From Nemertoderma westbladi (Eukaryota > Animalia > Xenacoelomorpha): a stretch of 64,000 nucleotides of DNA. Position 1 is the first letter of the stretch. The number at the start of each line of letters is the position of its first letter. Below are positions 7,401 to 44,148 of the stretch, piece after piece. A program made the translations under genes and the position numbers. A model generated the notes under the pieces. That model was not told the origin of the DNA, ran no database searches, and saw only the letters and a program-made list of their open reading frames with translations. The stretch lies in NCBI GenBank assembly GCA_032718475.1, contig JAUCBJ010002701.1, positions 6,047 to 70,046 of the forward strand, read 5' to 3'.

Positions 7401-8141
7401 GGATATATTTATATCCATTGCATCGATTTGATTTATATATAAATGACGTGCATTGTCGTGTTTTGTCTTGCCTTGTCTAACTGCCTAGCCTTCTTTATTT
7501 GGGATGGATATATTTATATCCATTGCATCGATTTGATTTATATATAAATGACGTGCATTGTCGTGTTTTGTCTAGCCTTGTCTAACTGCCTAGCCTTCTT
7601 TATTTGGGATGGATATATTTATATCCATTGCATCGATTTGATTTATGTATAAATGACGTGCATTGTCGTGTTTTGTCTAGCCTTGTTTAACTGCCTAGCC
7701 TCCTTTATTTGGGATGGATATATTTATATCCATTGCATCGATTTGATTTATATATAAATGACGTGCATTGTCGTGTTTTGTCTTGCCTTGTCTAACTGCC
7801 TAGCCTCCTTTATTTGGGATGGATATATTTATATCCATTGCATCGATTTGATTTATATATAAATGACGTGCATTGTCGTGTTTTGTCTTGCCTTGTCTAA
7901 CTGCCTAGCCTCCTTTATTTGGGATGGATATATTTATATCCATTGCATCGATTTGATTTATATATAAATGACGTGCATTGTCGTGTTTTGTCTAGCCTTG
8001 TTTAACTGCCTAGCCTCCTTTATTTGGGATGGATATATTTATATCCATTGCATCGATTTGATTTTTATATAAATGACGTGCATTGTCGTGTTTTGTCTTG
8101 CCTTGTCTAACTGCCTAGCCTCCTTTATTTGGGATGGATAT
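4449..8141. repeat. 105-bp satellite, left part (~35 copies)
   Basis: Unit CTTTATTTGGGATGGATATATTTATATCCATTGCATCGATTTGATTTATATATAAATGACGTGCATTGTCGTGTTTTGTCTTGCCTTGTCTAACTGCCTAGCCTC; highly homogeneous. Confidence 0.98.
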
Positions 8142-10339
8142 TGATAAACAACCGCGACCTCTATACTAACAGCAGAACTGTTGAACAGACAAATACCCGT
8201 TAATATCCTTCTGTCAACCTAATAAGTTCTCGTCTATCCAATAAGAGACAAAGACTGCTCTACTGTTAAGTAAAGGGGATCAGGAGCGTGCTATTACTAA
8301 ATTGTAAGGGTTGCTAAATACAAAACCGCTACTTACCGTTGGATGGCGCTAATCTGCCGTCCGCTAATATATTTTACTAAATTTACACAACTCCTGCAAA
8401 ATCGCTTGTTCCTTTCTCTACCGATTGCTCGATAGAGAGCTAACTGTTCGAATCTATGAGCCACGCGGGAATAACCAAAACAATAAACCCGAGTCGGCTC
8501 CCTAAGCTTACTTAAGACGAGTGCGAGAGGCCTTGCACTCAGAGTATTCTTACGCCTAATTCTATCACTATTAAAACACGCTATTGTCTACGTCTTTTCT
8601 AATCGCGAATACTGGGGGTTCTCTAACGTAATGTGTGAATGCGAGAATATTTAAATAATCAAATGATACAGTAATTGTTTCTACGTGGATAGTACCGCTC
8701 TGGGTCTAAACTTGCCTGCCGCTGGCTTTAGGCCAGCAAATTACTAGCGTATTGTGCGTACCGAATAGTGCGATCTAGCTGATTGCCCGCTAATGCAAAT
8801 AACCGCTCAGCGTGAATAGTTTACAGTACTCTAATTATTACCTTAGCTACTCTCCGCTATGCTGCGTACTAATTCTTAATTTTTTACTAATCAATTACAG
8901 TCACAAATATTTAACAGCGTACTAATTACTAAGAGTTCCAGAATGCGTAATTCTAATTTATCACGCAACAGGTTTCACTAGTAATAGCCTAAATTGCCGT
9001 ATTACTTTGACCTAATCAGTAACTAATTGTTGTAACTAAGAAATAGAAATCAATCAAAGAGAAAAGGGCGCCTACCTAAACATTCACAATCATAGGCACA
9101 CTTCAGTAACACACCAATCAGCGTCAACAATCACAGTTCGCAATTATGCAGTTAACTACTGTATGGCCCACAATTATGCGACTCACTATTCGTACTCCAC
9201 ACTCAACGTTGTAATACGCGCAGGCCTCTCCCGGATACATCTAGGTTTCCTAACTAACCCGATTCCTGCCCCCCTAATACTAAATAGAGACAAAACCTGG
9301 ATCATCAGCCCCCTAGTTACTGTATCGGCGAATGGTCTGCGTGTTACAGTGCAATTGCCCGCCCGCAACGGTGACTCCCCGCCAGCGTTGCCCGTCTTTG
9401 AATCCTCCGCTTTCCCTTAGTCGCTCAACCCCCCGATGTGCCCACCGCCCACTGGCACCTTAGCCCTCCATTATGCTAATAGCTACCGTAGCGGCGCATG
9501 CAAATCACAAAGTCTGACAGTCTCAGAAATCCCTTAGGATTATTGCGCAGAAAGGAATCACATAGAATCATTAATCAAAAGGTAGAAATCATAGTTCCAG
9601 TTGTAATTAGCAGTACTCGAAGGAATTAATTGAGAAACACAATCAAGAGTAATCGCACTAGCAAATCATTTCAAGAAATTAATCAAAATTAGCAAAATTG
9701 CAGAAAATACGCTAAAATATCCGTCAAAAGTGAATAGAGACAGCTCAGCAAGTACAAAGGTGATAGCAGTAAGGCTCTACCGGCACACCGCCAATTTATA
9801 GGTGATCCGGATGGGGTGATGCAATAGGGTGACGCAATCGCTCTCCTATTGGCTCTCCAGTCCGCGCTAGCATTAGACCAACCTGGAAGCAGTTAGTCCA
9901 ATAAGGAGGCCGGATTGTAGCCCTATCGCTTGCCCAAACCTCAAATTATTACCATATATGGTAATGGATCATGTCCCTGGCTGCTGAATGGCCAGGACAG
10001 CATCCCTATATGCTAGCCCTATCGATGCTAATATCAGCAAGCACAAAATCCAGGGTCCGACTAAACTTGCTACCCTGGAACTATCTACATATATCCTAAT
10101 GCAAAATTAGGTAGGTAGGGCTACATACTATACAAAATGGATGGATTCAAAATATATGGGCGTTTCGATTTCCCTATCTAAATATCATTACGTTATTATG
10201 CCTTATCTAAATATTATGCTGCATAACGGACTAATATTACATACAGTATAACGGACTAATATTGTGTACAGTATAACGACTAATATTGCATACTGCATAA
10301 TGACTAATATATGTGGATACAGCGCCATATACCGTAACA
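8142..10339 (-). repeat. 3' LTR (2198 bp)
   Basis: Direct repeat of 24871-27059; about 13 substitutions and one 9-bp indel counted by eye. Confidence 0.97.
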
Positions 10340-10348: not shown

Positions 10349-10837
10349 GGGAAATCATACAATGTTTCCCTCCAATTGTAGAAGAGTATAAGGTGATGTA
10401 TACAAAACAAAATAAATTTCTTCCAACTAATCTAAATACTTGATACTATAAATCCTACTATTTACAAAATATTGCTATAGATATTGCATAATGAATTGCA
10501 TACAAATTAAATTTACAAAATATTATCTCTCTCATTGTTAACGATTATTACATACAAATTAAATTTACAAATATTGTTTCTCGTTCGTTCTTACTACATA
10601 ATGATTACTACATACAAAATCAAATATATATAAAAAATTTGCTAGGGCAAGTGAAAGGAGTAAGCCAAACCCGCAGGTTTGTCTCCCCAATCACTTCCTT
10701 CGCCTCTCTCATAATATAAATTCAAAACAACTCAACTAGTGTATATGAGTCTAGTCGAAGATTTCTAAATGCTACAATATACATCAGAGCGACGATGATG
10801 TATATATCTAGAGTCTGTCGCCCTGTGCTATAATGTA

Positions 10838-13800
10838 TTATCGACCCGCTCCTGGGTTCTTTGGGCTCGCTCCTCTCTTTCGCCCTCTTCCCAGATACAC
10901 CAATCGTCCTCCAGTCGACTCCATTGACGGCGTCCGTGAGGCGTCACTCCCCGGAACCGGCGACGACGTTCCCTGAGCCCCGACAGATTCTCGGCTTGTG
11001 CTTCTTCCTCGGCCTCGTCCCAATTGTCGTGCTCCTGTGGTCGCTTCCGCCAACTCTTCCTTATGCAGTTGCACGTGCGCTTTTTCCGACGCTCCCTGCG
11101 CCTTGCGCTGCAACCTTTGCGCTTCTATAATAGAATGATAGTGTTCGTCCTTGACTTGACGCTTGTCTTGGACCCCTCCTCCTGGTTCCTTCCGCGAGCC
11201 TTGAGCTCCAGCGGTCGTCGCTGTGGTCGCTGCGATCCTCTGTTCCTGTATCCTCTCAGCGGTCAATGAACCCACTGGCACATGAGTCAACAAGAATTCG
11301 TTGCGGTATTGTATAGCCGCCATCCTCCAATCACCTCGCGCGCGTACCACTTTTCTAGTCTCCGTAAATACACCCTTCGTGATGCGATCGCAAATAGCAA
11401 CGAAGTTCCAGGTGTACTTGTTATCCATATTCAATTGTCTGAAGTATTCTCGGACTACGATAACTCCAGTGTTCTGTGGAAGGTCTTGAGCAGTTAGGAT
11501 GAGTTCCTGATATTGTGGTAGCGATTGTAGATATGGCTCGTACGCAACATGTGATGGGTCTACCGCCCAAAACCCATATCCCGCCTTAAATGGTAACGAA
11601 CGCATCTGCGCTTGAATATGGTAATCAGCCACACTCTCCCACTTATCTAACATCTCCCGAAGTAAGTTAGCGCTATGGTTTTGAAAGGAATCATCTCGCA
11701 GCTGACATCTCGCGCTACGATGTCCCTTTACCCCACAATATCCACATTGAGAAATGAAGACGGTGCACGTGTGAAACGAATGGTCGGTCTCATTACACCA
11801 ACGACAGACCTTATGCGCTGCCTCTACTACCGCGTCGCACGACTTTAGATTGTGCCTTGTGCTGCCGCACAATTTGCACCTACGCGCTTGTGGAAACCAG
11901 GCCCTCTCGTATATGAGGTCTCCAATCGGTTTCGCACTTCCTTCCTTCCCAATGTCTAATACGATGTCGTCCTCTCCGGTCAACGGTTGTCGATCCGGAA
12001 CAAAGTAAACATCCTCGCCCTTGTCCTCTATCTCCAATATTTCCTCCCGCGTTCGTTTCGGATATGTCTTCTCCACCGGAAGATCTACTCCGAACACCTC
12101 TACTAACGTCTCCGGCCAACCCTCCTTAACAGGTCTATCAGCCTCCGAGTGGAAGGGAGTACCAAACCCGCGGGTTTGATTCCCGAACCACTTCTCCAAA
12201 GCTTCTGGCGTCGGATACTCCATCGACGGTCGGTCTCCCAAATCTCCGATGTTCTGTCGATATACTCCTTCGAATATCGCTAATCCTCTCCTAACCATCG
12301 ACATATTCTCTAACGATTGGTTGAAGAACGGGGTTAAGAAACGCTTCATCACGTCGGATTGGATTCCCCCTTTCGAGCGAACGTATTGATCTCCTCCGAA
12401 TACCAATGGATGACGCTTCAAAACTCGCGCAACGATATCCGCTAATAAACAAGTCACCGTGTTCGACTCAAGCACCAAATAATATTGTAGCGACGCACGG
12501 GGTGGCGCGCAAATGTTCCAATACACTAACGCTTGCCGCTTGAAGTGGGATTTGAACTCCGCTCCCGGTGGGGTGTTGTATTCGCCATACGCCTCCTCGT
12601 ACTTCTTCTGCGTCTTTAACTTAAAGTCCCAATTATACAACAAGTGTGCTATAAAGCCCATACCAGTCTTGGCAGAGTTGGGATACTCCCTATAAATTCC
12701 AATATCCTGTGCCCATAGCAACAATAGCTTGGTGTCGACAAACGGTCTTGGCAATCTATCTTCCAGATCAGTCATGGTGTTGAAGTCGCTCTCCAAATCG
12801 CTCTGGACTCCCGATCCCACCTTGACGTAATCTTGGTTGAGAATAGCCTCTCTAACTTTCTTGGGTAGCATCCTGGCGTCGATACGCTCCGCTCCGTGCA
12901 TACCTCCTCGCCTGCATACCTCCAAAATCTGCTCCCTAGGATCCTTCCCTTTCCGATATTGTGTCGTTATGATGGGCTCCGGTCTCTCTCGATCCGCCCT
13001 CACACGCATAAACACATGAGTCACACCATCGGCCGCACGAATTTGAATACACTTGCTGGTCAAACATTCCTGATGGGACCCTCCTTCATTGTCGTAGAAC
13101 ATCACCCTCCAATCCTGCAGTGATTCCTCCGTTTTCCTCCACTGACGCTGAATCTCGTCTGATGGGGTCCACATGCGCTCGATAGCCTTGTGGTCATCAT
13201 ATCGGGTATAAGAACCCTTCCTCCTCAGCCACGTCTGGTCTACCTCCTCGTCATCTGGGAATGTAGCCACCGCGACCCATACCTTGATGTACTTATCCAA
13301 CCATCCGAATAGTTTGCTCTCCTTCCCCGGAGCTCCAATCTTATCCAATGTGTCGTAATCTGTGATCTGCATTGGGACATCACGCAAGAACTTCGCGCAT
13401 AAAACTTCCCGTAGACAGTCAACGTTCCAATGATCCGCCATTCTTACCATCGGCAAGAATCGTATCGCTTCTCGCGACTCCGGATGATCTACTAATATCG
13501 CAGGTTCGGTGCCGTCGGAATAATACACCGGTCGGGGTTGAGATACGACCTGTGGAACAAATCCGGTCACTCTCCTCGTCTCCTCTTGATGTCTATCCGC
13601 GGTCTTATTATACTCCGCTATCCTGTTCTCAAATAACTCTTTCGCCTTCGCCGCTCGCTCCTCCTGCCGCAACGCGTCTATGTCGTCCTGATGCTCAGGC
13701 GTGAGGCTTCTCGCTCGGTGAGGTGAAGTAAACGCAGTCCAGGGACTCGAGAGCTCCAAACCCGCGGGTTTGGTACCCGAGTCCCGCGCCGCTTCGCGCC

Positions 13801-14545
13801 GCGCCTCTAGATCCTTGTAGGCTCGGTACAGCGAAATGGCCGCTGCCGTCTCTATCAAACTGGGTGTCGAACAGGGTTTAATCTCCATATACGGATCTAA
13901 TGTCGTAACGGTCGGCGTAATGGGTCTCGGAGGTCGCTTTCCGCTAAAGTCGATACTGATCATCGGGTTGCTCATCGGGTAACCTCCCTCGTTGTATCTA
14001 AGGAACTGGTGAGCTGGACATCGCGTTAATATCGGTTCCGGATGTTGCTCGTCTAATCGGTCGGGAATCGCCACGTCTTGCTTATTCATGCATTCACCAC
14101 ACTTGTAGAACAGCTTGTACACGCTGAAGACTTTCGGCGTCTCCTGATCCTCGCCTCGAGTCCTCCGGTATAGATGCATCCCGTCGAACTGATCTCGGAC
14201 TGCAGGTAGAGGTTCTTCGTGTCGTAAATACATATTCATATGGTACAGTCGTGCGATCTCCTCATCCGGATCTGCACTAATGTCACATACGTCCAAAGCG
14301 AAGTCGTAAGGATACCGCGTGCGATATTCTCTCCGCAAAACTTCCATCCGGTCCCCCAACGCTCTCATTCTTTCCCTCCGTAATTCCTTATCATAAGTCG
14401 GCTTATATTTTCCATTTAGCTCCATCACGGACCGCCCATGGTAGTAAACGTTAGAGTCTTTACATCCTGGTCGCGCGAATGGTAGCTCCGCCTCCTCTCT
14501 GGCAGTAAATCCTCTGCGCGGTTGCGCTCTAATATCCCTCTCCAT
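10838..14545 (-). CDS. BEL accessory ORF2, ~1235 aa, triple CCHC zinc-knuckle protein of unknown function
   Basis: Uninterrupted ORF with first ATG at 14545 (the track starts at TTG 14578). Knuckles CKLCGSTRHNLKSC, CRWCNETDHSFHTC and CGYCGVKGHRSARC lie at 11705-11878; basic RG-rich tail; no obvious signal peptide or TM helix. Confidence 0.9.
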   Translation of the reverse strand: MERDIRAQPRRGFTAREEAELPFARPGCKDSNVYYHGRSVMELNGKYKPTYDKELRRERMRALGDRMEVLRREYRTRYPYDFALDVCDISADPDEEIARLYHMNMYLRHEEPLPAVRDQFDGMHLYRRTRGEDQETPKVFSVYKLFYKCGECMNKQDVAIPDRLDEQHPEPILTRCPAHQFLRYNEGGYPMSNPMISIDFSGKRPPRPITPTVTTLDPYMEIKPCSTPSLIETAAAISLYRAYKDLEARREAARDSGTKPAGLELSSPWTAFTSPHRARSLTPEHQDDIDALRQEERAAKAKELFENRIAEYNKTADRHQEETRRVTGFVPQVVSQPRPVYYSDGTEPAILVDHPESREAIRFLPMVRMADHWNVDCLREVLCAKFLRDVPMQITDYDTLDKIGAPGKESKLFGWLDKYIKVWVAVATFPDDEEVDQTWLRRKGSYTRYDDHKAIERMWTPSDEIQRQWRKTEESLQDWRVMFYDNEGGSHQECLTSKCIQIRAADGVTHVFMRVRADRERPEPIITTQYRKGKDPREQILEVCRRGGMHGAERIDARMLPKKVREAILNQDYVKVGSGVQSDLESDFNTMTDLEDRLPRPFVDTKLLLLWAQDIGIYREYPNSAKTGMGFIAHLLYNWDFKLKTQKKYEEAYGEYNTPPGAEFKSHFKRQALVYWNICAPPRASLQYYLVLESNTVTCLLADIVARVLKRHPLVFGGDQYVRSKGGIQSDVMKRFLTPFFNQSLENMSMVRRGLAIFEGVYRQNIGDLGDRPSMEYPTPEALEKWFGNQTRGFGTPFHSEADRPVKEGWPETLVEVFGVDLPVEKTYPKRTREEILEIEDKGEDVYFVPDRQPLTGEDDIVLDIGKEGSAKPIGDLIYERAWFPQARRCKLCGSTRHNLKSCDAVVEAAHKVCRWCNETDHSFHTCTVFISQCGYCGVKGHRSARCQLRDDSFQNHSANLLREMLDKWESVADYHIQAQMRSLPFKAGYGFWAVDPSHVAYEPYLQSLPQYQELILTAQDLPQNTGVIVVREYFRQLNMDNKYTWNFVAICDRITKGVFTETRKVVRARGDWRMAAIQYRNEFLLTHVPVGSLTAERIQEQRIAATTATTAGAQGSRKEPGGGVQDKRQVKDEHYHSIIEAQRLQRKAQGASEKAHVQLHKEELAEATTGARQLGRGRGRSTSRESVGAQGTSSPVPGSDASRTPSMESTGGRLVYLGRGRKRGASPKNPGAGR

Positions 14546-15299
14546 TATGCCTCGCGTATATACATATATATATCCCAATAAGTGCCGTTACGTAACCAAT
14601 TACACTGTGGGTAAATCAGTTAGATGTCGCCGAAAGACAGACCTCCCGAACCCCCCCGCCTTCCAGCAGTTCAGGTTTGACTCTCTAGATCCCGTCTCTT
14701 CCTAACTAACTATCCTCTAACCTATTCCCATGCATAGCGCAAAAACTTTGGAGATAAACTGGCCGTGACCAACTCACTTTTTGATGCCCAAACTACTCCC
14801 ATTACTCGTACTAAACTACAGTAGTTAGAAAGGACCATAGCCACAATACCCAACTATACCAAACCCACAGGTTTGATAATCGAACATCACACATCCTGCA
14901 AACTACTGAGTGGGGTCCATGTACGCCTCTGGTGCTACTAACCTTTAGCACCTTAGTTGCACTGTTGGCACCAATCCGTGGAAGTTGCTAAACTCAATTT
15001 ACACTCCTACGTAATATAGCCGTCACCATGGTTTCTAAATGCTATTTTCCAGGCTTCACGACTTTTCAAATTACTGTTTTCTATAGACGAATTCTAAAAC
15101 GCGTCTATACACAGCGTCTGGAATTGTCTTGGGTTCACTTTTCTAATTTTAAAATTTTCTAATTTTCCAAAATTTTGAAATAAAATTTTGTTTTGATACC
15201 CACTAGACAAAACTCAACGCAAATCACCACAACCCCGCTCCTATGCATTTCCTTGTATTTGCATACGAGGAATGCATACGAAGTGAGTTGCGTCCAATA

Positions 15300-18200
15300 C
15301 TAATTCTGTTTTGAGACAGGAGACAAATTATAATCTCCCGTCTCGATACGTGTCTCCTCTAATAACACAATATCTTGGACCGGTCGGTCCAAGGTGTGCA
15401 AACCATTAGTTTTACACTTTTTTGGGTGCGGACACTTGCACCTAATTTTCACAGTGACTGTGCGCACTATGTTTTGCACGTCTGGGTGTGTGTGCAAGAT
15501 GACACCTGTCTCCCAATACTTTCTCTTGACAATCGGCTCGGTTATCAATACGTAATCTCCCCTTTGGAGACTCCGAACCGTTTTGTACCACTTTGTTCTG
15601 GTGGATATGGTGGGAAGATAATATTCCCGCCAATATTCCCAGAATGTGTACGCTACTAATTGTGTCACCTTCCAGCTTTTACGACTATATAGGTCGGCAC
15701 TAACGGGTTCTGATGCCGGCACAAGAAATGCTGGACTCTGCATTAACAAATGATTCGGCGTTAATGCAACACCGTCTGGCAACATAGCTATCGGCCTCGA
15801 GTTTAGGGTATGCTCGATTTCAATGAAAGCTGTAACCAGTTCGTCGTCGGTAAGTTGTTTATTTACAGGCAATGTTTTGGCAATGGCCTGTTTTACAGAG
15901 CGAACTAAACGCTCCCAACTTCCTCCTCTCCAAGGACTTTCTGGAGTATTAAATCTCCACTCTACTCTTTGCGGCAAAAGTGCTGCAGAAATTTCCTTAT
16001 TCTGTGCTGCTTTATGAGCCGCGTTTAACTCGCTGTTCCCTCCGACAAAGTTTGTACCCTTATCGGAGTAGAACGCCTTTACTAGTCCTCTCCTGGCCAT
16101 AAATCTCTTTAAGGCCAGGAGCAGAGATTTGGTCGACATGTCTGCCACACGCTCAATGTGTATAGCTCTACTAGCCATACATGTCAGTAGCAGACCCCAT
16201 CGCTTGTGGGTCAGCCATCCACTCTTTGCCTCAATCGGACCAAAACAGTCCACCCCTGTGTTCGTAAAGGGTGGGTCATATGCCTGCACTCTCGCTTCCG
16301 GGAGTTCAGCCATCTCCTGTTCCAATACTCTGGCGTTCACCCTCTTGCAAACCAGACAGGCGTCGTACATAGTGCCTACTGCCCTGATTGGCTGCAATAG
16401 AATGAATCGCTGTCTCGCTGCCGACAAACAGTGTAACTTTCCCGCGTGATGCAACCTCTTGTGTATATCCCATAGAATCGCTCTTTGCAATTCTATTGGG
16501 TGACTAGGGATTATCACTGGGAACCGAAACTGTGAGTTTATGTCGACAGTCTGGATTCTCGATCTATGACAAATCAAACCCTTATGGATTAATAGACTCC
16601 ATTTTCTAAGGGGTTTATAGAGAACTGGTCGTTGAGCCGATAATAGATGGAATTCTTTGGGGAAGGCACACATTTGATAATGCTTCAAATGCTTTAATTC
16701 CGCTTGATCAATCTCATCCTCTGTCAGAGGTTGTTTCAATTTCCGAATTCGCTCACTATTGGTGCTCAATGGTTCTCTCAAATGTTCCGAATGTTTTAAA
16801 CAAAGGTACAAAATGTATCGGCTTAACCACGCAGTTCTTTTACAAATTGTCAGCCAAGAGGCAGACGAATTTAGTAATTTGTCATAAACACTGCATGACA
16901 CTAATGCCAGCGACGGTTGTCCGCTAACTAATGGAAGTTTCGAATCCAAACCCGCAGGTTTGGAAACCAAAGGCTCCATTGTGTCGGTCATTTTCTGTCC
17001 GTCACTTACTAACTGTGACTGTCGTCTAGTCTGTAAGGGTGGTTTTATGTCATAACTTACCCTTCCGGACCTAGTAGTCACGTAAGTCTGTTGGTCTGAC
17101 AGGTCTCCGGGCCGCTCCAATGACTCTTCAGGCCGCTCCAATGACTCTTCAGGCCGCTCCAATGACTCTTCAGGCCGCTCCAATGACTTAAGTTTGGCTT
17201 TAGACTTCGACTTAGAGACTTTCTCCACTTTGACTTCTGCATCTTCAGGCATCGGATTGGTCACTATCTTTAGTCGCTCTGGCCAATGTTCCTGTGTCCT
17301 CGTTAGAAAATCAGGTCCATGCAACCAAAACTCCTGCGACTCTTCCTGACAGAATTCCGCCGGCATTGCACCTCTCGAAGTTATGTCGGCCGGGTTCAAC
17401 ACTCCCGGACAATGTCTCCATTGTTCCTTCGTCGAAAAATCAACGATCTGAGCGCGTCTATTGGCCACAAATGTCTTTAGTGCAATATTGTCGGCCGCAA
17501 TGTATACTAACACCAAGGATGCGTCCGTCCAATAGAATAAGGTCAGTGTCGTGTCTAACTCCTCAGTTATCTGCTTACTTACCTCGACCGAAACTACTGC
17601 CGCCTGTAACTCTGCACGAGGGACAGTCATGTATTTGACCGGCATTGTCTTTGATCTAGAAGTCACAAAGGCCGTCTCAAATTTGTCCTGACTTACCTCT
17701 CGGCGAAGGTAGGCTACCATACCAAAGCCGGTGTCACTTGCATCACTAAATAGGTGGAGCTCTAAATCAGCTGGGAATACCAGCTGATTCGGAAAGTAGG
17801 AACGGGGTACATCTATATTTTTCAATAGATGTAACTCGGCTTCCCACTCCCTCCACTGCTTTGCATGTATAGGAGATATTGGTTCGTCCCACTCTAAGTC
17901 GGACAACCAAATTTTCCTCATGCACGCTCGTGCCTGTAATATAACCGGACTGATAAAGTTCATCGGGTCAAATAGTCTACTTAATGTCGATAAGCAAATC
18001 CTCTTAGTCAAAACTTTGTCTGGGCTACTGGGCTCAAATCTAACTCTTACCTGGAACTTATCTGAGTTCGGGTTCCAAGCGAGTCCCAGTACTCGCGCCA
18101 TGGGGATTGGTTCTACCCCCAATTCTATGTCTCCGCTCCCGCGATCTTTCACCGGGAACGATTCTAATAGGGCCTCCGAGTTCGTAGTGAACTTGGTCAG

Positions 18201-21200
18201 AGGAAATCCCCCTGTAGCCAAGCACTCCTGCAGGCCGTGAGCCACTTCTATGGCTTGTTCCGCTGTGTCCTTGGACACCAATCCGTCGTCCATGTAGAAG
18301 TTTCTCAAGATGGACTCGATAACCTCTACTGGATACTTACCAATCTGGGCTGTTGCCGTTTTCTTTAAAACGAACAGCGTGCCATTCGGACTATCGCGGG
18401 CGCCAAATATCCTAACGTACATTTGGTATGTAACCACTGGGCCGGATAAGTCTTCATTCTCGTACCAGAGAAAGCGAAGGCTATCCTGGTCTGCCTTACA
18501 GGCTCTTACCTGGTGGAACATCGCCTCGATGTCACAAGTAAATGCGAATCGCCGCTGTCTAAAACGTAACAATATTCCAATCAAATAGTTATTCAGGTTG
18601 GGACCATCCATCAACTCTGAATTCAGGGACATACCCCTATAGACTGCTGCGCAGTCGTTGACTACTCGGACTTTGTCTGGCTTGTCGGGGTGAGTCACAT
18701 AGTGGTGTGGAAGGTAATAAGTCTGGTCTGTCACTAAGTCAGGGTCCTCTACCTTCCCAGCAAATCCCTTGGCGAAATAGTTGTTGATCTGGGCGCAATA
18801 CTTCTCCCTAATGTCTGGATTCTTCAACAACCGAGCCCTTACTCCGTTCAATCTTTTCAAGGCTAAGTTATAGTTGTTCTCCAACTTAGGTGGTTGTCGA
18901 CGCCACAACATTCCAACTTCAAAATGTCCAGTCGGTAGTAGACGTATGGTGTCTTCCATCATCTCCAACGACCGTTTCTCATCAGTAGACATGGCTAGGT
19001 CATATCCACCGGGTTCCATTGCGTCCCTATCCAGCCATTCGACGGTTCTGGCTCCTGTCTCGAGGTCCTGGCGTATCAATTCCTTCTGTAGTTCCTCCTC
19101 ACTGTATTGGAAAATGTCGAGGTCTCGATATTTAGCCACCTGACCCTCCACTATGTCGGTATAAGTCAAAACGTTAGTCAAATAGGTAGCGTGGGCCGCT
19201 GAACCAGACCCACGGGTCTGATAACAGTAGTCCTCGGGTTCACTATCTGTCCGGTCGTTATGAAGTGGTTCCGACAACCTAACATTATCGGGAATCAACT
19301 CCTCGTCCGACTCGCTAAAGTCACTATAGTGGTCAATACAGGTTCTCCTAAACTCGTCTATGTCTGGTGGTTCTACTAACGGTGGTTGAGTTATAGGCTG
19401 TAGTTCGTCGTATCTGTTCATTGGCTTGTCGCCACCTGTAAACTCATAAGACATGGGTACTCGTGTATACCAACCTAGTATGGTCCTATGGGCATGTGGT
19501 CCATTGACATGCGGCTCAGCTGGTCTCGTTTCCCATATTTGGTGTGCGATCAGCTGTTCTGCACCAATCAACATAGAAACATTCCTATAACCTACCTGGT
19601 GTCTGGGTATCCTGAGCTTGTCAAAATACTCCTGTGCTATGGGACTCATCGGCGGCACCTTACCTAACTGCCTGCCGAATCCCTTCATAGCTAGACACTT
19701 AAATCCGTCCAATGGCAAAGCTTTCCGTTCTTGTCGAGTGTGTTGGTCTCTCGGAAGTAGGGAGTCTAGTTCTACAGATATCCTGTGTCCCTTGAGGTCA
19801 CCTACCCCGTGCATAGACTTCAACTCTATTTGGATCTCCTCGGCGTCCTGGAAGCTAGAAACGGCTCTCACCACTTCCTCGTCGATATACGATAATGTGG
19901 ACGCAGTGTCCAACATCACATATATCCGCTTCGATCCCTTATCGCCAGTGAGTTTCACCGGAATCACGCTGAATATTTCCGACGTGGCCGATGATAAATA
20001 CGTCCGCGCGCTGGTCGATGAACTATCCGCGGTGAAACCTTGGCAGGTCACTTCTCTCGCGCTCGACTCGCCATCCTCATCCGACGAACCTGGTTGGTAA
20101 CCATCGTCCTGGATGCCAGTGTACGTATTCCTCCTTATCGATACGGGTTCTTTGCTCCCCTTCCTGTGAGGATTTCGCTGTAAGTAATGGTCCGTTGGGG
20201 TATGGAAATCCGCATGTAGCAACTTGTGATGTAGTCTGCCGCATTCCATGCATCCGTCCTTGCTGTTTGGGCACTGCCGCCGTACATGACCTGGCGCAAG
20301 ACAAGCCCAACAGGTGTCCAACGTCCGCACTTGAACTCTTCTTTGTTCCGAATTTAATTCTTTGAACCGTCTGCAACTATCTAACTTATGGTCGTCAGAT
20401 CTTACCTCCTTTAGTAAACAGTATTGGCAACCTACAAATCCATCCGGCAACTCCTGTTGCTTTAACCTAGGTCTATCTAACCGCTCACCTGACCATACTC
20501 GCGAGTCTGATCTAAAGGCTGGGGTACTCGAATTATATCTGTCTACTGAGTTAAATGTCACAGTAGTCCTGTCATCGTCAAAACTTACCATAGACTTACC
20601 GGTAACAGGTTTAGACTCCCTCATATTCTCTTCTGAGAAGTTTGATTTCATCTCTGCTACTGCGTCTGTGGCTATCATGTCATGAATATGCTGAAGTGTC
20701 AATACTTTACCTTGGCTCTCCAACTTATTCTCTAATTTGCGCCATTTCTGTCGATAACGCATGTTTAAACGTCTTATTACGCTCTTTAAAACTTCGGCGT
20801 GATCACCATGATGAGGTAGATTCACCGTCCTCAAGATGTCCAATGCGTTCGAAATAGCGTTCGCTAAGTTCAACAGCTCTAACGGAGTTGTAATCCTTCC
20901 GCCCTTACCCAAGTCTTCTACTATCGACTGCGCCATCTTGGTTTTATTCCCGTAGATGTCACTAAGCGTCTTCATCGCTAACTCAAATGCCCTTTCATTG
21001 CCGACGAAGTTATCAGCAATGGCTCTAGGTTCTCGATGGTGCATCTGAAGCAAATAGTTGAACTTCTCGTTGGGAGTAAAGGTGCTGTTGGTTAGCTGCT
21101 CGTCGACATAGGTTTTGAAAGTCCTCCAATGCTTATGGTTGCCCATAAACTTCTGGGGTTGTTGCGTCGGCAGTCCTTGCCTAGCAGCAAACTTACCTAT

Positions 21201-23675
21201 GTCCCTAAGGGTTGCGTCGTTCCGGGTTAACAAATGGTTTAGTTCCGCAGGGTTGTTAAGTCTGGTCCTTTCCCGGTGGTTCCAACTTACCTGCTCCGCG
21301 TCCGTCCTTCTTTCCTTATAGTTTCGGGACTTCTGACGTCTCATGTCTTCCTCTTCATCGCTTGACTCGGTGTCAGTCCTTAGCGCTCGCGATGGTTTGC
21401 GCGCCGAGGCCCTGATCCAAGCCTCCTCAATAAATTTCTCGGCCGAATTTTCGAAATTGGGATTATGGATATTCGGGACAGGCGTCCTTACCTGAGGTCT
21501 ATGTGGTATAGTCTCCTCCGATATGCGTACTCGTTGACTATGCTGGACTTTATCTAACTCAGGCCTGCTAGGATTAGAATTACTTCTTACCTGGGCTGCT
21601 TCCTTTAACCGTAGGTTGCTAAGCATGTCCGTTATAGGTTGGATGTGCGGCGATATAGCTTGCGCTAAACTAGCACTTAACTCATCCCTCGTAATAAATT
21701 CCTGGCTAGGGTTCTGTTGTATAGTCGGCTCTATCTGAGTAATCATCCGCTGTCTCTCATATGATCCCTCTTCCGGTTTAACCCGGAAGTTCTCCGTCGA
21801 ACTGGGTCGGCGCTCCGTCCGCGTATTCCAAACCCGCGGGTTCGGTTCGCCCAATACTCGGCCCGTTGGAGTCTCTTCTCTAAATTCTCCATTGTCGCGT
21901 TCGGTATACAGTGGTGCGGTGTTCCGATGACGTAGATCCTGGGCGATGGGTGAAGCACCAATACCAACTGGCGTGCGATATGTAGAGAACGGTTTAGCGA
22001 TCCGTGTACTCGTAATAGCTGGACCGGGTATAGGAATTCTGGTCGTCGTCGACTCGCGTATGGTCGGAGTTCTCGCTTCCTGTTCGGCCTTCTGCAGTGC
22101 GAACAGTTCTCGCAACTCGGTCCCTACACTCGCCCCACATTCTTCGATCATCCGCATCCCCTTCTCGGCGATTTCATTCGCCTTCCTAGTCCGTTCTTCG
22201 CTCTCTAAACTTAATCTCGCACTTTCCAACTGTGCCAGTTTACGTTCTTCTTCTTCCCTCGCTCGTCGTGCTGCGCTCTCTTCTTCCACTCGCGCCTTCT
22301 CTTCATATAATGCGCGTCTTCTTTTCTCGATCTCGAGTTCGCGTTCCTTGCGCTCGCGTTCGAGTTGAAGCTCGCGTTCCTTCTGTTCCCGCTCGAGTTC
22401 CTTGCGCTCGCGTTCGGCTTGAAGCTCGAGTTCCTTGCGCTCGCGTTCGGCTTGAAGCTCGCGCTCCTTGCGCTCGCGTTCGGCTTGAAGCTCGCGCTCC
22501 CTTTGCTCACGTTCCGCCCGTTCGCGCTTACTTATTTCTTCCAACTCTCGCAACTCCGCATCCAACTTTCGCGTGCGCTCGCGTTCCCGCTCGGCTTCCT
22601 TCCGTGCTTCCGATGCACGCAAAACTTCCGCCTGTTGTTCGTCCAGTCGGCGTCTTCTCTCCTCCGCCGAGTTGTGCGAAACAAGGGATCTAGCACATAT
22701 AACCTTACCTCGCGCGTGACTAACCTGGGAATCGCCGCTGTCTCTGGATGCGTCGTCGGGTGGAGTCAACGTCCTCTGTTGGATGTTCTCCGTCGTCGGT
22801 AGCACCTGGCCTGGTACCACCACTCCATTCTGCATCAGCCAGCTAGTAACTTCCCTTTGATACCGGCGCTCCTCTTTATCTTGGATCTCTTCTCGCTTCA
22901 CTAAGTCTCTCAACTCTGCGTCACTCACTTGAGTCGCCTGCGTTTGTGATGCCCATAGCAGCCAGTTCTCCGTCCTAACTCGTCGGAATCGCTCCGATAA
23001 CTCGCGGTGCTCCAACAAGGCTGCTAAAACCCTGTCGTAAATCCTCGTCGCCACGTCGCTCGACTGAGACTCTACTGCCTTCTTCGCTAGGACTGCAAGC
23101 TCCTCCGTCTGCTTGAATAACGCTGAGTTATATCCTCTTCTAATCTCTGCTAACTCTACCCTCCCGATGTTCGCTGAGTCGGCTAACATTTTCCTTACCT
23201 TGTCCGCCGTCCGGGTTATATGTCCGGCATGCGCGCGAAGTTTCTTCTTTATCGCAATATCAAGTTCTCTCTCGCTTACCTGACTTACACTTGGTGGACT
23301 TGAAGGATTATTTCGGGAACTACGGGTACTCCTTACAGCCGTCGGGACCACGGCACTTACCATACCCACAGGTCTGGAAACCGGGCTCCGGGCTCTCGCT
23401 TCTGCTACACTACCCTCCCTATCACTCACCTCTGTCCGGGCTGCCGTACAGTCCTTCCTTACAGTAGCGGTAGGGGATCCTAATACTATTACTTGAGGTT
23501 GTTCTTCTTCCTCACTAGTCACTGTCTCGTCCTCCTGTTCACTTACGTCAGCGTCACTCGCTGCGTCGTCATAGTCGGCATTGTCGTCAACAGTTATGTT
23601 TACGCTATCGTCAGTCGGCGGTCCAGCCGCCGTCTCGTAGCTGTCCTCTAGTGCCTCCTTGTCTGAGACACTCAT
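15300..23675 (-). CDS. BEL/Pao Gag-Pol polyprotein, 2791 aa
   Basis: Gag core (FMGNHKHWRTF..EKFNYL) and BEL-type triple Cys/His boxes ending CMECGRLHHKLLH; protease LDTAS; RT YLPHH/FYMDD; RNase H LFSDAS/PRAEL/WTD/NPAD; integrase HHCC, VDCFGP, SDKGTNF, GGSWERLV; C-terminal FWEYWREYYL. Confidence 0.98.
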   Translation of the reverse strand: MSVSDKEALEDSYETAAGPPTDDSVNITVDDNADYDDAASDADVSEQEDETVTSEEEEQPQVIVLGSPTATVRKDCTAARTEVSDREGSVAEARARSPVSRPVGMVSAVVPTAVRSTRSSRNNPSSPPSVSQVSERELDIAIKKKLRAHAGHITRTADKVRKMLADSANIGRVELAEIRRGYNSALFKQTEELAVLAKKAVESQSSDVATRIYDRVLAALLEHRELSERFRRVRTENWLLWASQTQATQVSDAELRDLVKREEIQDKEERRYQREVTSWLMQNGVVVPGQVLPTTENIQQRTLTPPDDASRDSGDSQVSHARGKVICARSLVSHNSAEERRRRLDEQQAEVLRASEARKEAERERERTRKLDAELRELEEISKRERAEREQRERELQAERERKERELQAERERKELELQAERERKELEREQKERELQLERERKERELEIEKRRRALYEEKARVEEESAARRAREEEERKLAQLESARLSLESEERTRKANEIAEKGMRMIEECGASVGTELRELFALQKAEQEARTPTIRESTTTRIPIPGPAITSTRIAKPFSTYRTPVGIGASPIAQDLRHRNTAPLYTERDNGEFREETPTGRVLGEPNPRVWNTRTERRPSSTENFRVKPEEGSYERQRMITQIEPTIQQNPSQEFITRDELSASLAQAISPHIQPITDMLSNLRLKEAAQVRSNSNPSRPELDKVQHSQRVRISEETIPHRPQVRTPVPNIHNPNFENSAEKFIEEAWIRASARKPSRALRTDTESSDEEEDMRRQKSRNYKERRTDAEQVSWNHRERTRLNNPAELNHLLTRNDATLRDIGKFAARQGLPTQQPQKFMGNHKHWRTFKTYVDEQLTNSTFTPNEKFNYLLQMHHREPRAIADNFVGNERAFELAMKTLSDIYGNKTKMAQSIVEDLGKGGRITTPLELLNLANAISNALDILRTVNLPHHGDHAEVLKSVIRRLNMRYRQKWRKLENKLESQGKVLTLQHIHDMIATDAVAEMKSNFSEENMRESKPVTGKSMVSFDDDRTTVTFNSVDRYNSSTPAFRSDSRVWSGERLDRPRLKQQELPDGFVGCQYCLLKEVRSDDHKLDSCRRFKELNSEQRRVQVRTLDTCWACLAPGHVRRQCPNSKDGCMECGRLHHKLLHADFHTPTDHYLQRNPHRKGSKEPVSIRRNTYTGIQDDGYQPGSSDEDGESSAREVTCQGFTADSSSTSARTYLSSATSEIFSVIPVKLTGDKGSKRIYVMLDTASTLSYIDEEVVRAVSSFQDAEEIQIELKSMHGVGDLKGHRISVELDSLLPRDQHTRQERKALPLDGFKCLAMKGFGRQLGKVPPMSPIAQEYFDKLRIPRHQVGYRNVSMLIGAEQLIAHQIWETRPAEPHVNGPHAHRTILGWYTRVPMSYEFTGGDKPMNRYDELQPITQPPLVEPPDIDEFRRTCIDHYSDFSESDEELIPDNVRLSEPLHNDRTDSEPEDYCYQTRGSGSAAHATYLTNVLTYTDIVEGQVAKYRDLDIFQYSEEELQKELIRQDLETGARTVEWLDRDAMEPGGYDLAMSTDEKRSLEMMEDTIRLLPTGHFEVGMLWRRQPPKLENNYNLALKRLNGVRARLLKNPDIREKYCAQINNYFAKGFAGKVEDPDLVTDQTYYLPHHYVTHPDKPDKVRVVNDCAAVYRGMSLNSELMDGPNLNNYLIGILLRFRQRRFAFTCDIEAMFHQVRACKADQDSLRFLWYENEDLSGPVVTYQMYVRIFGARDSPNGTLFVLKKTATAQIGKYPVEVIESILRNFYMDDGLVSKDTAEQAIEVAHGLQECLATGGFPLTKFTTNSEALLESFPVKDRGSGDIELGVEPIPMARVLGLAWNPNSDKFQVRVRFEPSSPDKVLTKRICLSTLSRLFDPMNFISPVILQARACMRKIWLSDLEWDEPISPIHAKQWREWEAELHLLKNIDVPRSYFPNQLVFPADLELHLFSDASDTGFGMVAYLRREVSQDKFETAFVTSRSKTMPVKYMTVPRAELQAAVVSVEVSKQITEELDTTLTLFYWTDASLVLVYIAADNIALKTFVANRRAQIVDFSTKEQWRHCPGVLNPADITSRGAMPAEFCQEESQEFWLHGPDFLTRTQEHWPERLKIVTNPMPEDAEVKVEKVSKSKSKAKLKSLERPEESLERPEESLERPEESLERPGDLSDQQTYVTTRSGRVSYDIKPPLQTRRQSQLVSDGQKMTDTMEPLVSKPAGLDSKLPLVSGQPSLALVSCSVYDKLLNSSASWLTICKRTAWLSRYILYLCLKHSEHLREPLSTNSERIRKLKQPLTEDEIDQAELKHLKHYQMCAFPKEFHLLSAQRPVLYKPLRKWSLLIHKGLICHRSRIQTVDINSQFRFPVIIPSHPIELQRAILWDIHKRLHHAGKLHCLSAARQRFILLQPIRAVGTMYDACLVCKRVNARVLEQEMAELPEARVQAYDPPFTNTGVDCFGPIEAKSGWLTHKRWGLLLTCMASRAIHIERVADMSTKSLLLALKRFMARRGLVKAFYSDKGTNFVGGNSELNAAHKAAQNKEISAALLPQRVEWRFNTPESPWRGGSWERLVRSVKQAIAKTLPVNKQLTDDELVTAFIEIEHTLNSRPIAMLPDGVALTPNHLLMQSPAFLVPASEPVSADLYSRKSWKVTQLVAYTFWEYWREYYLPTISTRTKWYKTVRSLQRGDYVLITEPIVKRKYWETGVILHTHPDVQNIVRTVTVKIRCKCPHPKKCKTNGLHTLDRPVQDIVLLEETRIETGDYNLSPVSKQN
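17110..17188. repeat. In-frame 21-bp tandem repeat (LERPEES x~4) in the RH-IN linker
   Basis: Tandem GGCCGCTCCAATGACTCTTCA. Confidence 0.9.
22335..22500. repeat. In-frame ~33-bp repeats (ERERKERELQA) in the Gag coiled coil
   Basis: Repeated CCTTGCGCTCGCGTTCGGCTTGAAGCTCG. Confidence 0.85.
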
Positions 23676-24858
23676 AGTCTAAATAATGTTTTGCTTTCCG
23701 GCAAAATATATCTCGCAAAGTTCGAGATATAATTATAATTTAACCGAAAATACGGTCAAATTATTTGTCTAATAATCAGTTAGTCCAAATGTCAAAATAA
23801 ATTCGCAATGCAATATTGTGAATTTAATGGGGTATATAGTTATAGCAAATACTAGCAGAATATTTAAACAAAAATATTATTATTTAGCTACTATATAGCA
23901 TTAAATACCGGTATGACACAAAATAACTTTGAATCTAATACAAAATATTCAAAATATACTTGCCGCCCGAATATTTCTAATTTCATATATATATAGCTCT
24001 AATCAACGTAATTTTAATTTCAAATATTATATGTATCCACTAGCGCGTGGCTACATCTTCGGGTTGCGACTCTCTCTAACTCTCTCTCTAACTTGAGCGA
24101 TTCAAAAAACCATGGCCGGCTAAACCTAAATATCCTAACTAATAAATTGAGTTCAGCTTCGCAGTTAAACAACCGATAATTTTTTACTGCTTCCACAAAC
24201 ACACTGGCGCCAACAGAACAACTAACCTTGTTTGCTGTGAGATTCCACATCCGCGTCCAAAGATTCAGGCCCTTCGCTGATTGCAAACCGAACCCGCAGA
24301 CCCACACGAACCCCAAACTCAGAAGTTCCGTCTTGCCATGTATCTCCAGATGGTATAAAATAACTAAGCGGTTACCTAACATACCGGTACAAAACTCTAG
24401 AATTTTACAAATAATTTTGACCGAAACTGAATTCTCGCAAACCTAGCTAATAATTTTCAAAAAACTTACTAATTACAGTTTGCCCTAAGGCCTAAGGAAC
24501 TGCTGTATTCGCAATTAGCAAAAACGCACTACCGTACATTCACTGTATGCAGTACAGTAAGTAAAACAGTACACCAACTTAACAGCCTAATGATACTGTG
24601 TGTGGTACGGCAAAACAAATGTCCCTTCTACCGTACGCAGTAACAGCAATCAGCCTAATGTACTACTGTACTATTGTACGCAGCCAGTGAATACAGTAAT
24701 CTAAACTAACAGCCTAAAAATACACTATGTGTTCTACCGTACGCTAGCCTATAGCCTACAGCAGACGATCACGTGCTCCAACTTATTACTTAATACTGTG
24801 ATACTACTAATCAGCCTAAGAATACTCTATTACTGTACGCTACAGCCTACAGCAACAA

Positions 24859-24870
24859 TGCGCGTATTAC
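24859..24870 (-). other. Non-tRNA primer-binding-site position (GTAATACGCGCA), complementary to an LTR 12-mer
   Basis: Directly follows the 5' LTR and lacks TGG; perfect inverted repeat with 25940-25951 (and 9211-9222). Confidence 0.6.
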
Positions 24871-42740: not shown

Positions 42741-43356
42741 CCATTCAAATATATAATAATTTAATTAAATAAATAAAAATTATAAATGAAATAAATTAAT
42801 AAATAATAATTGAAATAAATAAATAAATAATAATTGATATAAATAAATAAATAAATAAATAAAATGAATAAATAAATAATTGAAATAAAGATATAAAATA
42901 TGTTGTAGTTATCTTCATTAATCATATTTTGTTGTCTTTTTCCAACATTATAATTTGTTTGACGTTTGAATTGAATTTTAGGGTACCTGTTTCTGATAAA
43001 AAGTAAAAAAAAAATAATTTTTTTAACTGATTCTGGATCACCATTTAATCGCGATTTCACAACTAAAATCGAAATTGCAAGATCTCTTTTAGTACTCGAG
43101 TTATAGCTGATGCCTGTCTGTCAAAATCCGACAAAATTAATAATCCCACGCATTGTACAGTTTTCGCTATAAGATTTTGAAGTGAAATTTCATTTCTAAT
43201 GTATGTTTAAATGTACATAATAGTAAAATTTATTAGAGACTTACTGAACTATTAGTTTACATTACTCAGTATTCAATAATGAATTGAGTCCAGTAAAAGT
43301 TTTATTTTATACTTTTGGAATTTGAACTTTAATGAAGGAGCAGAATAATTGATATC

Positions 43357-44135: not shown

Positions 44136-44148
44136 GTGAGTACCGGTA

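Follow-up and report, generated by a model that had tools for sequence, protein, structure and literature searches.

Evidence for a selected array of sense-strand hairpins along a BEL/Pao retrotransposon of Nemertoderma westbladi

An intact BEL/Pao LTR retrotransposon on the minus strand of Nemertoderma westbladi contig JAUCBJ010002701.1 carries ten related hairpin sites along its internal region. Compensatory base changes, an asymmetry of wobble pairs between the strands, even spacing and conservation in sister families support a selected, sense-strand, single-stranded hairpin code. The RNA recognition code proposed in the first-pass annotation of this DNA is thus upheld as far as selected sense-strand hairpins are concerned, and is partly supported as a whole. 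All positions refer to the window, the whole 64-kb stretch of DNA that was analysed, in which the element is laid out as follows:

24871-27059, minus strand: 5′ LTR, 2189 nt, with TG...CA ends and no hairpin site
24859-24870, minus strand: primer-binding position, no TGG, 12 nt exactly complementary to LTR positions 1109-1120
15300-23678, minus strand: intact Gag-Pol ORF of BEL/Pao type, 2792 aa stop to stop
14605-14623, minus strand: putative branch point with splice acceptor, located 60 nt before the ATG of ORF2, consensus match only
10838-14545, minus strand: ORF2, 1235 aa from ATG
12407-13123, minus strand: EXD2/WRN-like exonuclease-homology domain of ORF2, remote homology
about 11708-11878, minus strand: three CX2CX4HX4C knuckles of ORF2, with a conserved domain behind them
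8142-10339, minus strand: 3′ LTR

Gag-Pol is of Pao type and shows the protease, RT, RNase H and integrase order of BEL/Pao elements (Belpaoviridae), with BEL-specific Pfam domains; its Pfam matches are Peptidase_A17 (E 6e-39), DUF5641, DUF1759 and Integrase_H2C2. PF05380 is present in 71/71 homologues at E 1e-50 or better, and the element forms a long branch within a clade of marine-invertebrate and fish elements. The TG...CA LTRs are flanked by the 5-bp target-site duplication typical of BEL/Pao ends (27060-27064 and 8137-8141). The LTR pair is 98.96% identical and the element is young. The 12-nt complement of the primer-binding position lies at 25940-25951 and 9211-9222 in the LTRs (~5e-4 expected by chance), which, as read from the DNA, is a self-priming geometry. 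The Tf1 primer is the first 11 nt of the transcript, whereas here ~570 nt separate the complement from the single TATA-like box found upstream of it, in a BEL/Pao element. Common to both are the lack of a tRNA-type primer-binding site and a complementarity to the own LTR that is flush with the LTR end, as described for Tf1/sushi self-priming (PMC6317226).

Eight hairpin copies had been reported in the first-pass annotation, and all eight sequences were recovered at the coordinates given, with coding copies in the frames and peptides given there (RPVGM, PNPRVW, QTRG, KPAGL, KPAGL, QTRG). The count was too low, since 20493-20510 and the degenerate 24288-24305 bring the total to ten. All ten lie within the internal region, in untranslated parts or inter-domain linkers:

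Site 1, 24288-24305, minus strand: in the 5′ untranslated region; degenerate copy that retains its loop and 3′ arm
Site 2, 23360-23377, minus strand: Gag aa 101; internal G-A mismatch; 3′ end overlaps a GGTAAG
Site 3, 21828-21845, minus strand: Gag aa 612; G-U pair; alternative fold predicted
Site 4, 20493-20510, minus strand: newly found, aa 1057, between capsid-like domain and knuckles
Site 5, 19204-19221, minus strand: aa 1486, protease-RT linker; A-U to G-C
Site 6, 16946-16963, minus strand: aa 2239, RNase H-integrase linker
Site 7, 14859-14876, minus strand: inter-ORF spacer; sense-strand prediction gives a long lower stem rich in G-U pairs, antisense prediction does not
Site 8, 13756-13773, minus strand: ORF2, ahead of the exonuclease-like domain; perfect palindrome with a strong lower stem
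Site 9, 12162-12179, minus strand: ORF2 linker from exonuclease-like domain to knuckles; flanks resemble site 10
Site 10, core 10665-10682 in a ~70-nt rod at 10641-10710, minus strand: 3′ untranslated region

The sites share a YGYG loop, and the eight original cores are invariant at 12/18 positions. All nine asymmetric sites share one orientation, and G9, G11 and G18 are invariant on the sense strand. The new site at 20493 scores E 0.064 and PWM 16.1, against PWM 10.0 for the best match outside the element; its closing pair has changed from C-G to U-A and it contains a G-A mismatch. No copy was found in the LTRs or outside the element, including the other 49 kb of the 64-kb window, as had been claimed. 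A search of Rfam gave no family match, its two matches (E 2.9 and 4) being far below the gathering threshold.

The pattern CCA.ACCC.C.GGT.[TC]G has exactly eight matches in 64 kb, the eight original copies. This frequency is far above shuffled expectation, the comparison suggested in the first-pass annotation: over 1000 shuffles that preserved codons in ORFs and dinucleotides elsewhere, the full motif averaged 0.018 occurrences with a maximum of 1. A motif-blind statistic, the largest family of dispersed 16-mers with up to 3 mismatches, likewise gave 8, compared with 3-5 in 63 shuffles. The intervals between sites are regular (0.9-2.3 kb, typically ~1.5 kb), and the eight original sites are spaced more evenly than under uniform placement (CV 0.29, P=0.0014), also when the hand-bounded protein domains are excluded (P=0.00025). 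Sites 12162 and 10665 share flanks and are probably of common origin, as might be expected if the array consisted of neutral remnants left by internal duplication or gene conversion. Such an origin, or chance matching, is hardly credible for the family and already contradicted by the shuffle and spacing nulls, by the occurrence of copies in three reading frames with unrelated flanks, and by the conserved island described below.

Base pairing is better preserved on the sense strand, where 66/70 pair cells are pairing, than on the antisense strand (57/70). Three pairs are altered on both sides, a number reached in 4/500 shuffles, and each of the three 3′-arm transitions has its compensating change. 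One-sided changes yield G-U nine times on the sense strand and never on the antisense strand; four of these nine cells belong to the degenerate site 24288, where G-U makes up four of the six pairs and does so only on the sense strand, and four of the nine occupy a single position. Chance matches to the loop and 3′ arm elsewhere never complete six pairs (0/12), whereas those in the element always do (10/10). The A-U to G-C swap at 19204 and the four sense-strand G-U pairs of the first-pass annotation are present. Its stem in every copy needs correction: at 23360 the stem is interrupted by a G-A, and when 21828 is folded in its native context the predicted ensemble lacks the core (pair probability at most 0.02). 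The ‘UNCG-type’ loop does not explain the family: the UNCG rule leaves the second loop position free, while here the second G is invariant and U occupies the third position in 3/10 loops.

By folding z-score the sense strand has no advantage (means of -1.5 sense and -1.8 antisense over 10 sites), and the scores are near 0 at sites 24288, 21828 and 20493. The lower stems exceed both nulls modestly, on both strands. This lack of strand preference would suit a palindrome bound as double-stranded DNA by a dimeric protein, with incidental hairpins, as would the near-perfect 18-bp palindrome of the core (exact at 13756) and the two-sided changes, which also preserve the dyad. We nevertheless consider a DNA site very improbable. 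A symmetric site would be expected in both orientations, yet the nine asymmetric sites all face one way; an asymmetric site needs no compensation, yet every 3′-arm transition is matched. Moreover, the conserved unit is a 70-nt rod whose lower stems are diverse in sequence, and no site lies in the LTRs, where DNA regulators usually act.

The hairpin of the 3′ UTR is kept as a conserved island in divergent sister families, so that neither result named as refuting in the first-pass annotation, a shuffled-level frequency or a lack of conservation in sister copies, was observed. Within the rod, variants at 1% or more are confined to the loop Y (10675) and one A-U to G-U change (10695). All 12 indels listed for sister sequences fall outside the rod, and in 5 divergent contigs among those listed the match is limited to about 10638-10711. 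BEL elements do not generally carry the motif: among 80 distant BEL loci (34-43% Pol identity, many partial), none carries the motif and none carries ORF2. The largest word families in these relatives consist of a tandem duplicate (6), an AT-rich word (6) and a sequence that forms no hairpin (5). The hairpins, ORF2 and the splice-donor excess described below were seen together in a single lineage.

These distributions bear on the possibility that a host RNA-binding protein reads the hairpins (Egalitarian, Staufen or a zinc-knuckle adaptor for export or localisation), as with the CTE or the I-factor signal, with ORF2 in another role. Several sites are predicted to form rods in which a bulge or internal loop separates an upper from a lower helix, matching the layout of Egalitarian targets including the I-factor signal (PMC13186709). 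A host reader nonetheless seems quite unlikely. Egalitarian targets are described as lacking overt sequence patterns, in contrast to the invariant positions of the cores; a host code would also be expected in other families, yet it is missing from the 80 distant loci, from the other 49 kb of the window and from Rfam families.

ORF2 has no Pfam match. Six remote homologues were found (E 1e-9 to 8e-4), all six with knuckles and five with a clear exonuclease-like region, and profile matches include EXD2 (E 0.001 and 0.0033), WRN (E 0.65) and the knuckles of HIV NC and Lin28. For a putative DnaQ-like fold, the Atlas score of 0.85 is a lead only; the nearest Atlas clusters include an EXD1-like family (0.77). 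In alignments of 20-26% identity, the acidic catalytic residues do not all appear intact: where four homologues have the ExoI D-x-E, ORF2 shows Arg, while it keeps the ExoII D and an ExoIII-like Y...E. ORF2 would appear to belong to a remote EXD2/WRN-like exonuclease and triple-CCHC family with two catalytic residues replaced by arginine; the prediction is of a nuclease that has been disabled and that carries three zinc knuckles. The DEDDy exonuclease ORF3 of the bdelloid-rotifer LTR retrotransposons Juno and Vesta is also an additional ORF behind pol, and has the DEDD-type fold that is putative in ORF2 (PMC5408684). However, these elements are gypsy-type and their catalytic residues are described as intact (PMC5408684), and the words ‘hairpin’ and ‘stem-loop’ are absent from that text; here the element is BEL/Pao, ExoI is apparently replaced, three knuckles follow and an array of RNA targets is present. 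A precedent is Egalitarian, whose exonuclease-homology domain binds bulged RNA stem-loops, including the I-factor signal, with dispensable catalytic residues (PMC13186709). Egalitarian is a host dynein adaptor that, in that account, reads shape with little sequence, whereas ORF2 is element-encoded and its candidate sites are sequence-conserved.

Of all hexamers in gag-pol, GGTAAG, a match to the splice-donor consensus, shows the strongest enrichment, with 19 copies between 17056 and 23361 against 5.0 +/- 2.1 expected (maximum 13 in 500 shuffles), a fourfold excess. One further copy lies in ORF2 and one on the antisense strand, and in 62 related ORFs the hexamer is depleted (27 vs 75 expected). 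Intact 5′ splice-site motifs are known to hold mRNA in human nuclei (PMC11629677).

We tentatively favour a lock and key resembling Rev/RRE, in which ORF2 would bind the hairpins, likely folded in the element RNA, and so license the unspliced full-length RNA for survival and nuclear export, letting it evade nuclear quality control. ORF2 would be translated from a spliced message, and the unused 5′ splice sites would by default keep the unspliced RNA in the nucleus, or lead to its splicing or decay. The two guanines that never vary in the loop may be recognised by the ORF2 knuckles, with the stem held by the catalytically degenerate exonuclease fold. At a density of one site per 1-2 kb, ORF2 could coat the 14.5-kb internal region from end to end and override the default, as Rev/RRE or CERV do; the splice donors would then be the lock and hairpin-bound ORF2 the key, both specific to the family. 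Circumstantial observations tilt us towards ORF2 and control of unspliced RNA, namely the pseudo-exonuclease and knuckle layout, the donor excess and the joint absence in relatives; Gag, with its own knuckles, could be an alternative reader.

Export of unspliced RNA with unused splice sites by an accessory protein from a spliced message has been shown for HIV-1 Rev/RRE and CERV and is what we infer here. The RRE is a single structured region within the intron; the present element instead has ten dispersed, sequence-conserved hairpins, three of them in the predicted ORF2 exon. Seven of the ten lie upstream of the predicted ORF2 acceptor and three downstream; the latter would also be in the spliced message, unlike the RRE, so the cis element would not be confined to intron-retaining RNAs. 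CERV is required to export the unspliced genomic RNA of Cer1, a gypsy-type rather than BEL LTR retrotransposon of C. elegans (PMC10309623). A word search of PMC10309623 gave no stem-loop or response element for CERV, and the domains described for CERV are unlike the predicted exonuclease fold and triple knuckle of ORF2, the candidate reader.

The hairpins might instead be dispersed packaging signals read by the nucleocapsid knuckles of Gag, their spacing letting Gag co-assemble along a long genome and compact it; this is the main rival reading, and we consider it unlikely. Packaging signals of ssRNA viruses are short, degenerate and read by capsid protein, whereas this array has an 18-nt conserved core, 0.9-2.3 kb spacing and a dedicated candidate reader, and belongs to a retrotransposon. 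The two are alike in having multiple dispersed, related stem-loops with a shared loop motif along genome RNA, coding regions included, and packaging-signal-mediated assembly of RNA viruses and HBV provides a precedent (PMC6281560). Even spacing over the whole internal region fits packaging, as do three Cys/His motifs read from the Gag translation at aa 1085-1157, one of them canonical CCHC; three such knuckles are a BEL/Pao trait (10.64898/2026.03.22.711591). At ~16.7 kb from LTR start to LTR start, compared with 6.1-7.4 kb in 12 relatives with both LTRs, the element may also need extra compaction. In SL3, loop residues G2 and G4 contact the NC knuckles. Its GGAG tetraloop illustrates a G-rich loop as an NC site (PMC12789967). 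Yet relatives with Gag knuckles have no comparable family (0/80), the spliced ORF2 message, with three of the sites, would be marked for packaging as well, and the splice-donor excess is left unexplained.

The donor excess is equally unaccounted for if ORF2 binds the hairpins as a family-specific anti-silencing factor against piRNA processing, exosome decay or methylation of the locus, which we regard as decidedly unlikely. Plant VANC proteins offer a parallel for such a function. The EXD1-like cluster near ORF2 would fit, since EXD1 and Maelstrom, pseudo-nucleases of the piRNA pathway, are described as inactive DEDD derivatives that retain RNA binding (PMC5408684). The family is also highly repeated (23,847 contigs of run X1), and the element is not CpG-depleted (o/e 1.07 vs 0.69 in the window's distal 37 kb), although this level may merely reflect youth, and satellite makes up much of the comparison DNA.

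Taken further, the lock and key between ORF2 and the hairpins could amount to a self-contained licence, which we put forward as a doubtful extension. By default the genomic RNA would be silenced by the splice-donor (U1) sites loaded into gag-pol, and an Egalitarian-like pseudo-nuclease would read a private hairpin code, about once per 1.5 kb, to unlock it. Literature searches yielded no description of such a hairpin array with an ORF2-type protein in a retroelement. If true, the element would possess a family-specific self-recognition system with a built-in ruler and no retroelement counterpart in the literature searched, and hairpin-coded transposon RNAs might form a broader class that has been overlooked, with this element as one case.

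The hairpins lie in an intact BEL/Pao LTR retrotransposon, whose RNA strand is taken here as the sense strand:

27059 to 8142, minus strand: element with LTRs of 2.2 kb that are 98.96% identical, and a 5-bp target-site duplication
15300..23678, minus strand: Gag-Pol, 2792 aa, with BEL/Pao Pfam domains
10838..14545, minus strand: ORF2, 1235 aa, after Gag-Pol

The eight 18-nt stem-loops with a YGYG loop reported in the first-pass annotation (starting at 23360, 21828, 19204, 16946, 14859, 13756, 12162 and 10665) are all present and are absent from the rest of the window. When synonymous codons were shuffled inside both ORFs of the internal region and dinucleotides elsewhere in it, the full motif appeared 0.018 times on average and at most once (1000 shuffles), compared with eight observed copies. 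Because the motif had been chosen post hoc, we also sized, without reference to the motif, the largest 16-mer family with ≤3 mismatches and members at least 200 nt apart. This family counted 8 in the element versus 3–5 in 63 shuffles. The looser pattern ACCN4GGT alone was marginal (9 versus a mean of 3.3 and a maximum of 9 in shuffles). A neutral origin of the hairpin copies is scarcely credible.

The total of eight did not hold. Searches with a weight matrix and a covariance model, both built on the original eight, added a ninth site at 20493 (E 0.064; weight-matrix score 16.1, the top score outside the element being 10.0), and a degenerate tenth starts at 24288. The half-pattern of loop plus 3' arm has exactly 10 sense-strand matches in the 64 kb, the degenerate site among them. 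All 10 fall within the internal region, as expected from the claim that the LTRs and the surroundings carry no copies. At least six of the seven pairs form at 10/10 of these element sites; in 112 other loci, the same half-pattern gave 12 chance matches, of which 0/12 reached six pairs. IMG/VR had no BEL relatives and 32 exact motif matches, every one single-copy, and Rfam contained no family matching the hairpin. The enriched words CGA[AG]CGC and ACGCGAG were set aside, as they derive partly or mostly from a repeated coiled-coil stretch of Gag.

Pairing distinguishes the two strands. On the sense strand 66/70 pair cells are able to pair, versus 57/70 on the antisense strand. The proposed covariation was recovered, with three pairs altered on both sides, a number matched in 4/500 shuffles under a control that ignores relatedness. 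The sense-only G-U pairs were likewise confirmed: nine one-sided changes yield G-U on the sense strand and 0 on the antisense strand, although the degenerate site supplies four of these and another grouping of four lies at a shared outer pair. We rejected CpG decay as the source of the loop pyrimidines, because every change falls on a single strand and CpG is not depleted in the element. Were the recognised unit instead a double-stranded DNA palindrome, a symmetric site would leave orientation free, yet all nine asymmetric copies face one way; an asymmetric site would need no 5'-arm match for each 3'-arm transition. Only a sense-strand hairpin explains both the orientation and the matched transitions, and we consider the palindrome very unlikely.

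Most cores stand on longer rods, in which a lower stem of differing sequence extends the core. These lower stems pair better than at random core placements in 4/8 cases at p≤0.02 (combined 3e-5) and weakly better than shuffles of their own flanks (0.014). Antisense lower stems score alike (5e-4 and 0.018, respectively). Folding z-scores, taken as a strand test, do not favour the sense strand, which counts against the hairpin reading; three sites have z near 0, and an alternative fold is predicted for the core at 21828. On balance, we are highly confident that selection maintains this unit as a sense-strand hairpin.

Neighbouring sites are separated by 928 to 2258 nt. The original eight are spaced more evenly than expected under random placement (CV 0.29, P=0.0014), and more strongly so when protein domains, bounded by hand, are excluded (P=0.00025). 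The seven coding sites do occur in all three reading frames, as had been noted, and all lie outside recognised protein domains. Even spacing of protein-binding sites over a 14.5-kb RNA would be unusual in itself and implies a coverage rule.

Conservation in sister copies, read fully for the site at 10665, is borne out there. We compared 10605-10745 with contigs of four runs from three studies, one of which possibly supplied the window. Variation of ≥1% occurs at four places, two of them outside the rod (10641..10710); the two within it are a loop pyrimidine (10675) and a change of A-U to sense-strand G-U (10695). The 12 listed indels fall at 10619-10632 and 10722-10727. Among the 26 of 337 pieces listed, five contigs (133–281 nt) match only about 10638-10711, with 4–7 differences and several with unrelated flanks; these divergent contigs were judged by match extent and difference counts rather than by letters, and an edge effect accounts for part of the depth peak. 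Given the few internal variants, the outside indels and the rod-only matches, we regard this rod as a conserved island. Variant places elsewhere come from 40 listed of 1138. At 14850, a base found in sister copies of three runs converts a sense-strand U-G in the lower stem of the site at 14859 to U-A. Sister joints ending at rods (11332 to 13739 and 14285 to 19189) were set aside as evidence, the intervening sequence being unread.

Gag-Pol has 71 database homologues (28–41% identical) and forms a long branch amid marine-invertebrate and fish elements in a tree of a chosen subset. In public runs the family is highly repeated and variable, summed depth not being equal to copy number. The scan of related BEL families that the first-pass annotation had proposed was negative: in the 80 top-ranking loci (34–43% identity) among 478 that a metagenome scan of limited coverage yielded, the motif was absent (0/80), as were any dispersed hairpin family of comparable kind (0/80) and any match to the ORF2 profile. 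As far as this sample shows, the hairpin code appears lineage-specific. The LTR-to-LTR span is 6.1–7.4 kb in the twelve relatives with both LTRs. That the hairpins are Gag packaging signals serving an unusually long genome is a possible but doubtful reading.

The element also lacks a tRNA-type primer-binding site. Instead, the 12 nt directly abutting the 5' LTR (24859-24870) are complementary to LTR positions 1109-1120:

25940-25951 and 9211-9222: LTR complement of 24859-24870

Among seven relatives checked, one (L052) has a 10-nt flush complement (~7e-4 expected), another (L029) an 8-nt one (0.024), and five are unremarkable. BEL elements may self-prime; the passages on self-priming consulted concern other groups, not BEL. 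The element sits in a homogeneous 105-bp satellite array (4449-8141, 35 copies; 27060-35081, 76 copies). Elsewhere in the window are a rhodopsin-family GPCR exon (43336-44139, plus strand; neuropeptide FF and tachykinin receptors nearest among solved structures), which marks the host as an animal, a tandem 20/40-bp unit, itself palindromic (44797-44917), and a LINE-type ORF for endonuclease and reverse transcriptase (54389-58039, minus strand), upstream of which lies a perfect 38-bp tandem array.

ORF2 has no Pfam domain match and no matches in word-based protein searches; a full HMMER search gave six remote homologues. Zinc knuckles followed by a conserved domain occur in 6/6, and a clear DEDD-like exonuclease region (D-x-E where present, KVGS...D, TGLG, Y...D/E) in 5/6. 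In one homologue, P0072, the module of three knuckles and conserved domain occurs twice, and the exonuclease-like region is degenerate. The family profile matches human EXD2 (E 0.001), NC and Lin28 knuckles, and entry 7c45, presumably trypanosome RNase D (E 4.6e-5, mainly via its knuckles); the exonuclease part alone matches EXD2 at E 0.0033. Matches to Rotavirus VP4 and Roquin were treated as chance, and two AlphaFold2 models of ORF2 have a mean pLDDT of 33.0 and 35.7. A sister variant in three runs lacks 335 nt at 14070-14406, with 8 other letters instead, and keeps the ORF2 frame. Because the ExoI acidic pair aligns to arginines in the window's ORF2 protein, the alignment suggests that this ORF2 is a pseudo-nuclease. 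Zinc knuckles can read GNG loops, and the two unvarying guanines of YGYG (G2 and G4) would fit such a reading. The exonuclease-homology domain of Egalitarian is described as binding bulged stem-loops without its catalytic residues (in the part of PMC13186709 consulted). A host protein as the hairpin reader is unlikely.

The 5' splice-site consensus GGTAAG shows the strongest enrichment of any hexamer in gag-pol, with 19 copies versus 5.0 ± 2.1 and a maximum of 13 in 500 codon shuffles:

17056-23361, minus strand: 19 GGTAAG hexamers in gag-pol

Elsewhere, one occurs in ORF2 and one on the antisense strand. The hexamer is depleted overall in 62 related ORFs of at least 3 kb (27 versus 75 expected), although one relative, L071, has 7 versus 1.8. 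A branch point and acceptor match consensus 60 nt upstream of the ORF2 ATG. One run, conceivably of RNA, showed no joint, which speaks neither for nor against expression or splicing. A possible short intron lies inside the LTR (24992-25067, minus strand), with a consensus donor followed by a branch point and acceptor ~75 nt downstream. Nuclear retention and decay are described in human cells as consequences of intact 5' splice-site motifs (PMC11629677, consulted in part).

We infer both the hairpin's reader and its function, and tentatively favour a Rev-like licence for unspliced RNA with ORF2 as the predicted reader, which uses all the parts. Splice donors would silence unspliced RNA by default; ORF2, translated from a spliced message, would bind hairpins over the entire RNA, and the bound unspliced RNA would survive and exit the nucleus. 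CERV, the accessory protein of Cer1, offers a retrotransposon precedent (PMC10309623, as far as consulted). The weak point of the Rev-like licence is that the ORF2 message would carry three sites too. Anti-silencing mediated by ORF2 is quite improbable.

The literature, with few subscription journals covered, gave no account of dispersed conserved hairpins in BEL/Pao elements, in keeping with the first-pass annotation, or in other LTR retrotransposons, and none of such hairpins paired with an exonuclease ORF. Exonuclease ORFs are known in rotifer gypsy-type elements, and function is described as not demonstrated for such extra retrotransposon ORFs (PMC5408684, consulted in part). Viral RNA tags with cognate readers are known already, and the hairpins with their candidate reader would be a variant of such kinds.

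How LTR retrotransposons choose their own genomic RNA and bring it unspliced out of the nucleus is understood for few elements. Here one intact element carries a sharply defined short RNA motif together with candidates for its cognate protein and for a retention signal. A 70-nt RNA and a single protein domain would thereby suffice to test both RNA selection and export and the role of the exonuclease ORF. Should ORF2 bind the hairpin, the two would constitute a new eukaryotic module of RNA tag and reader.
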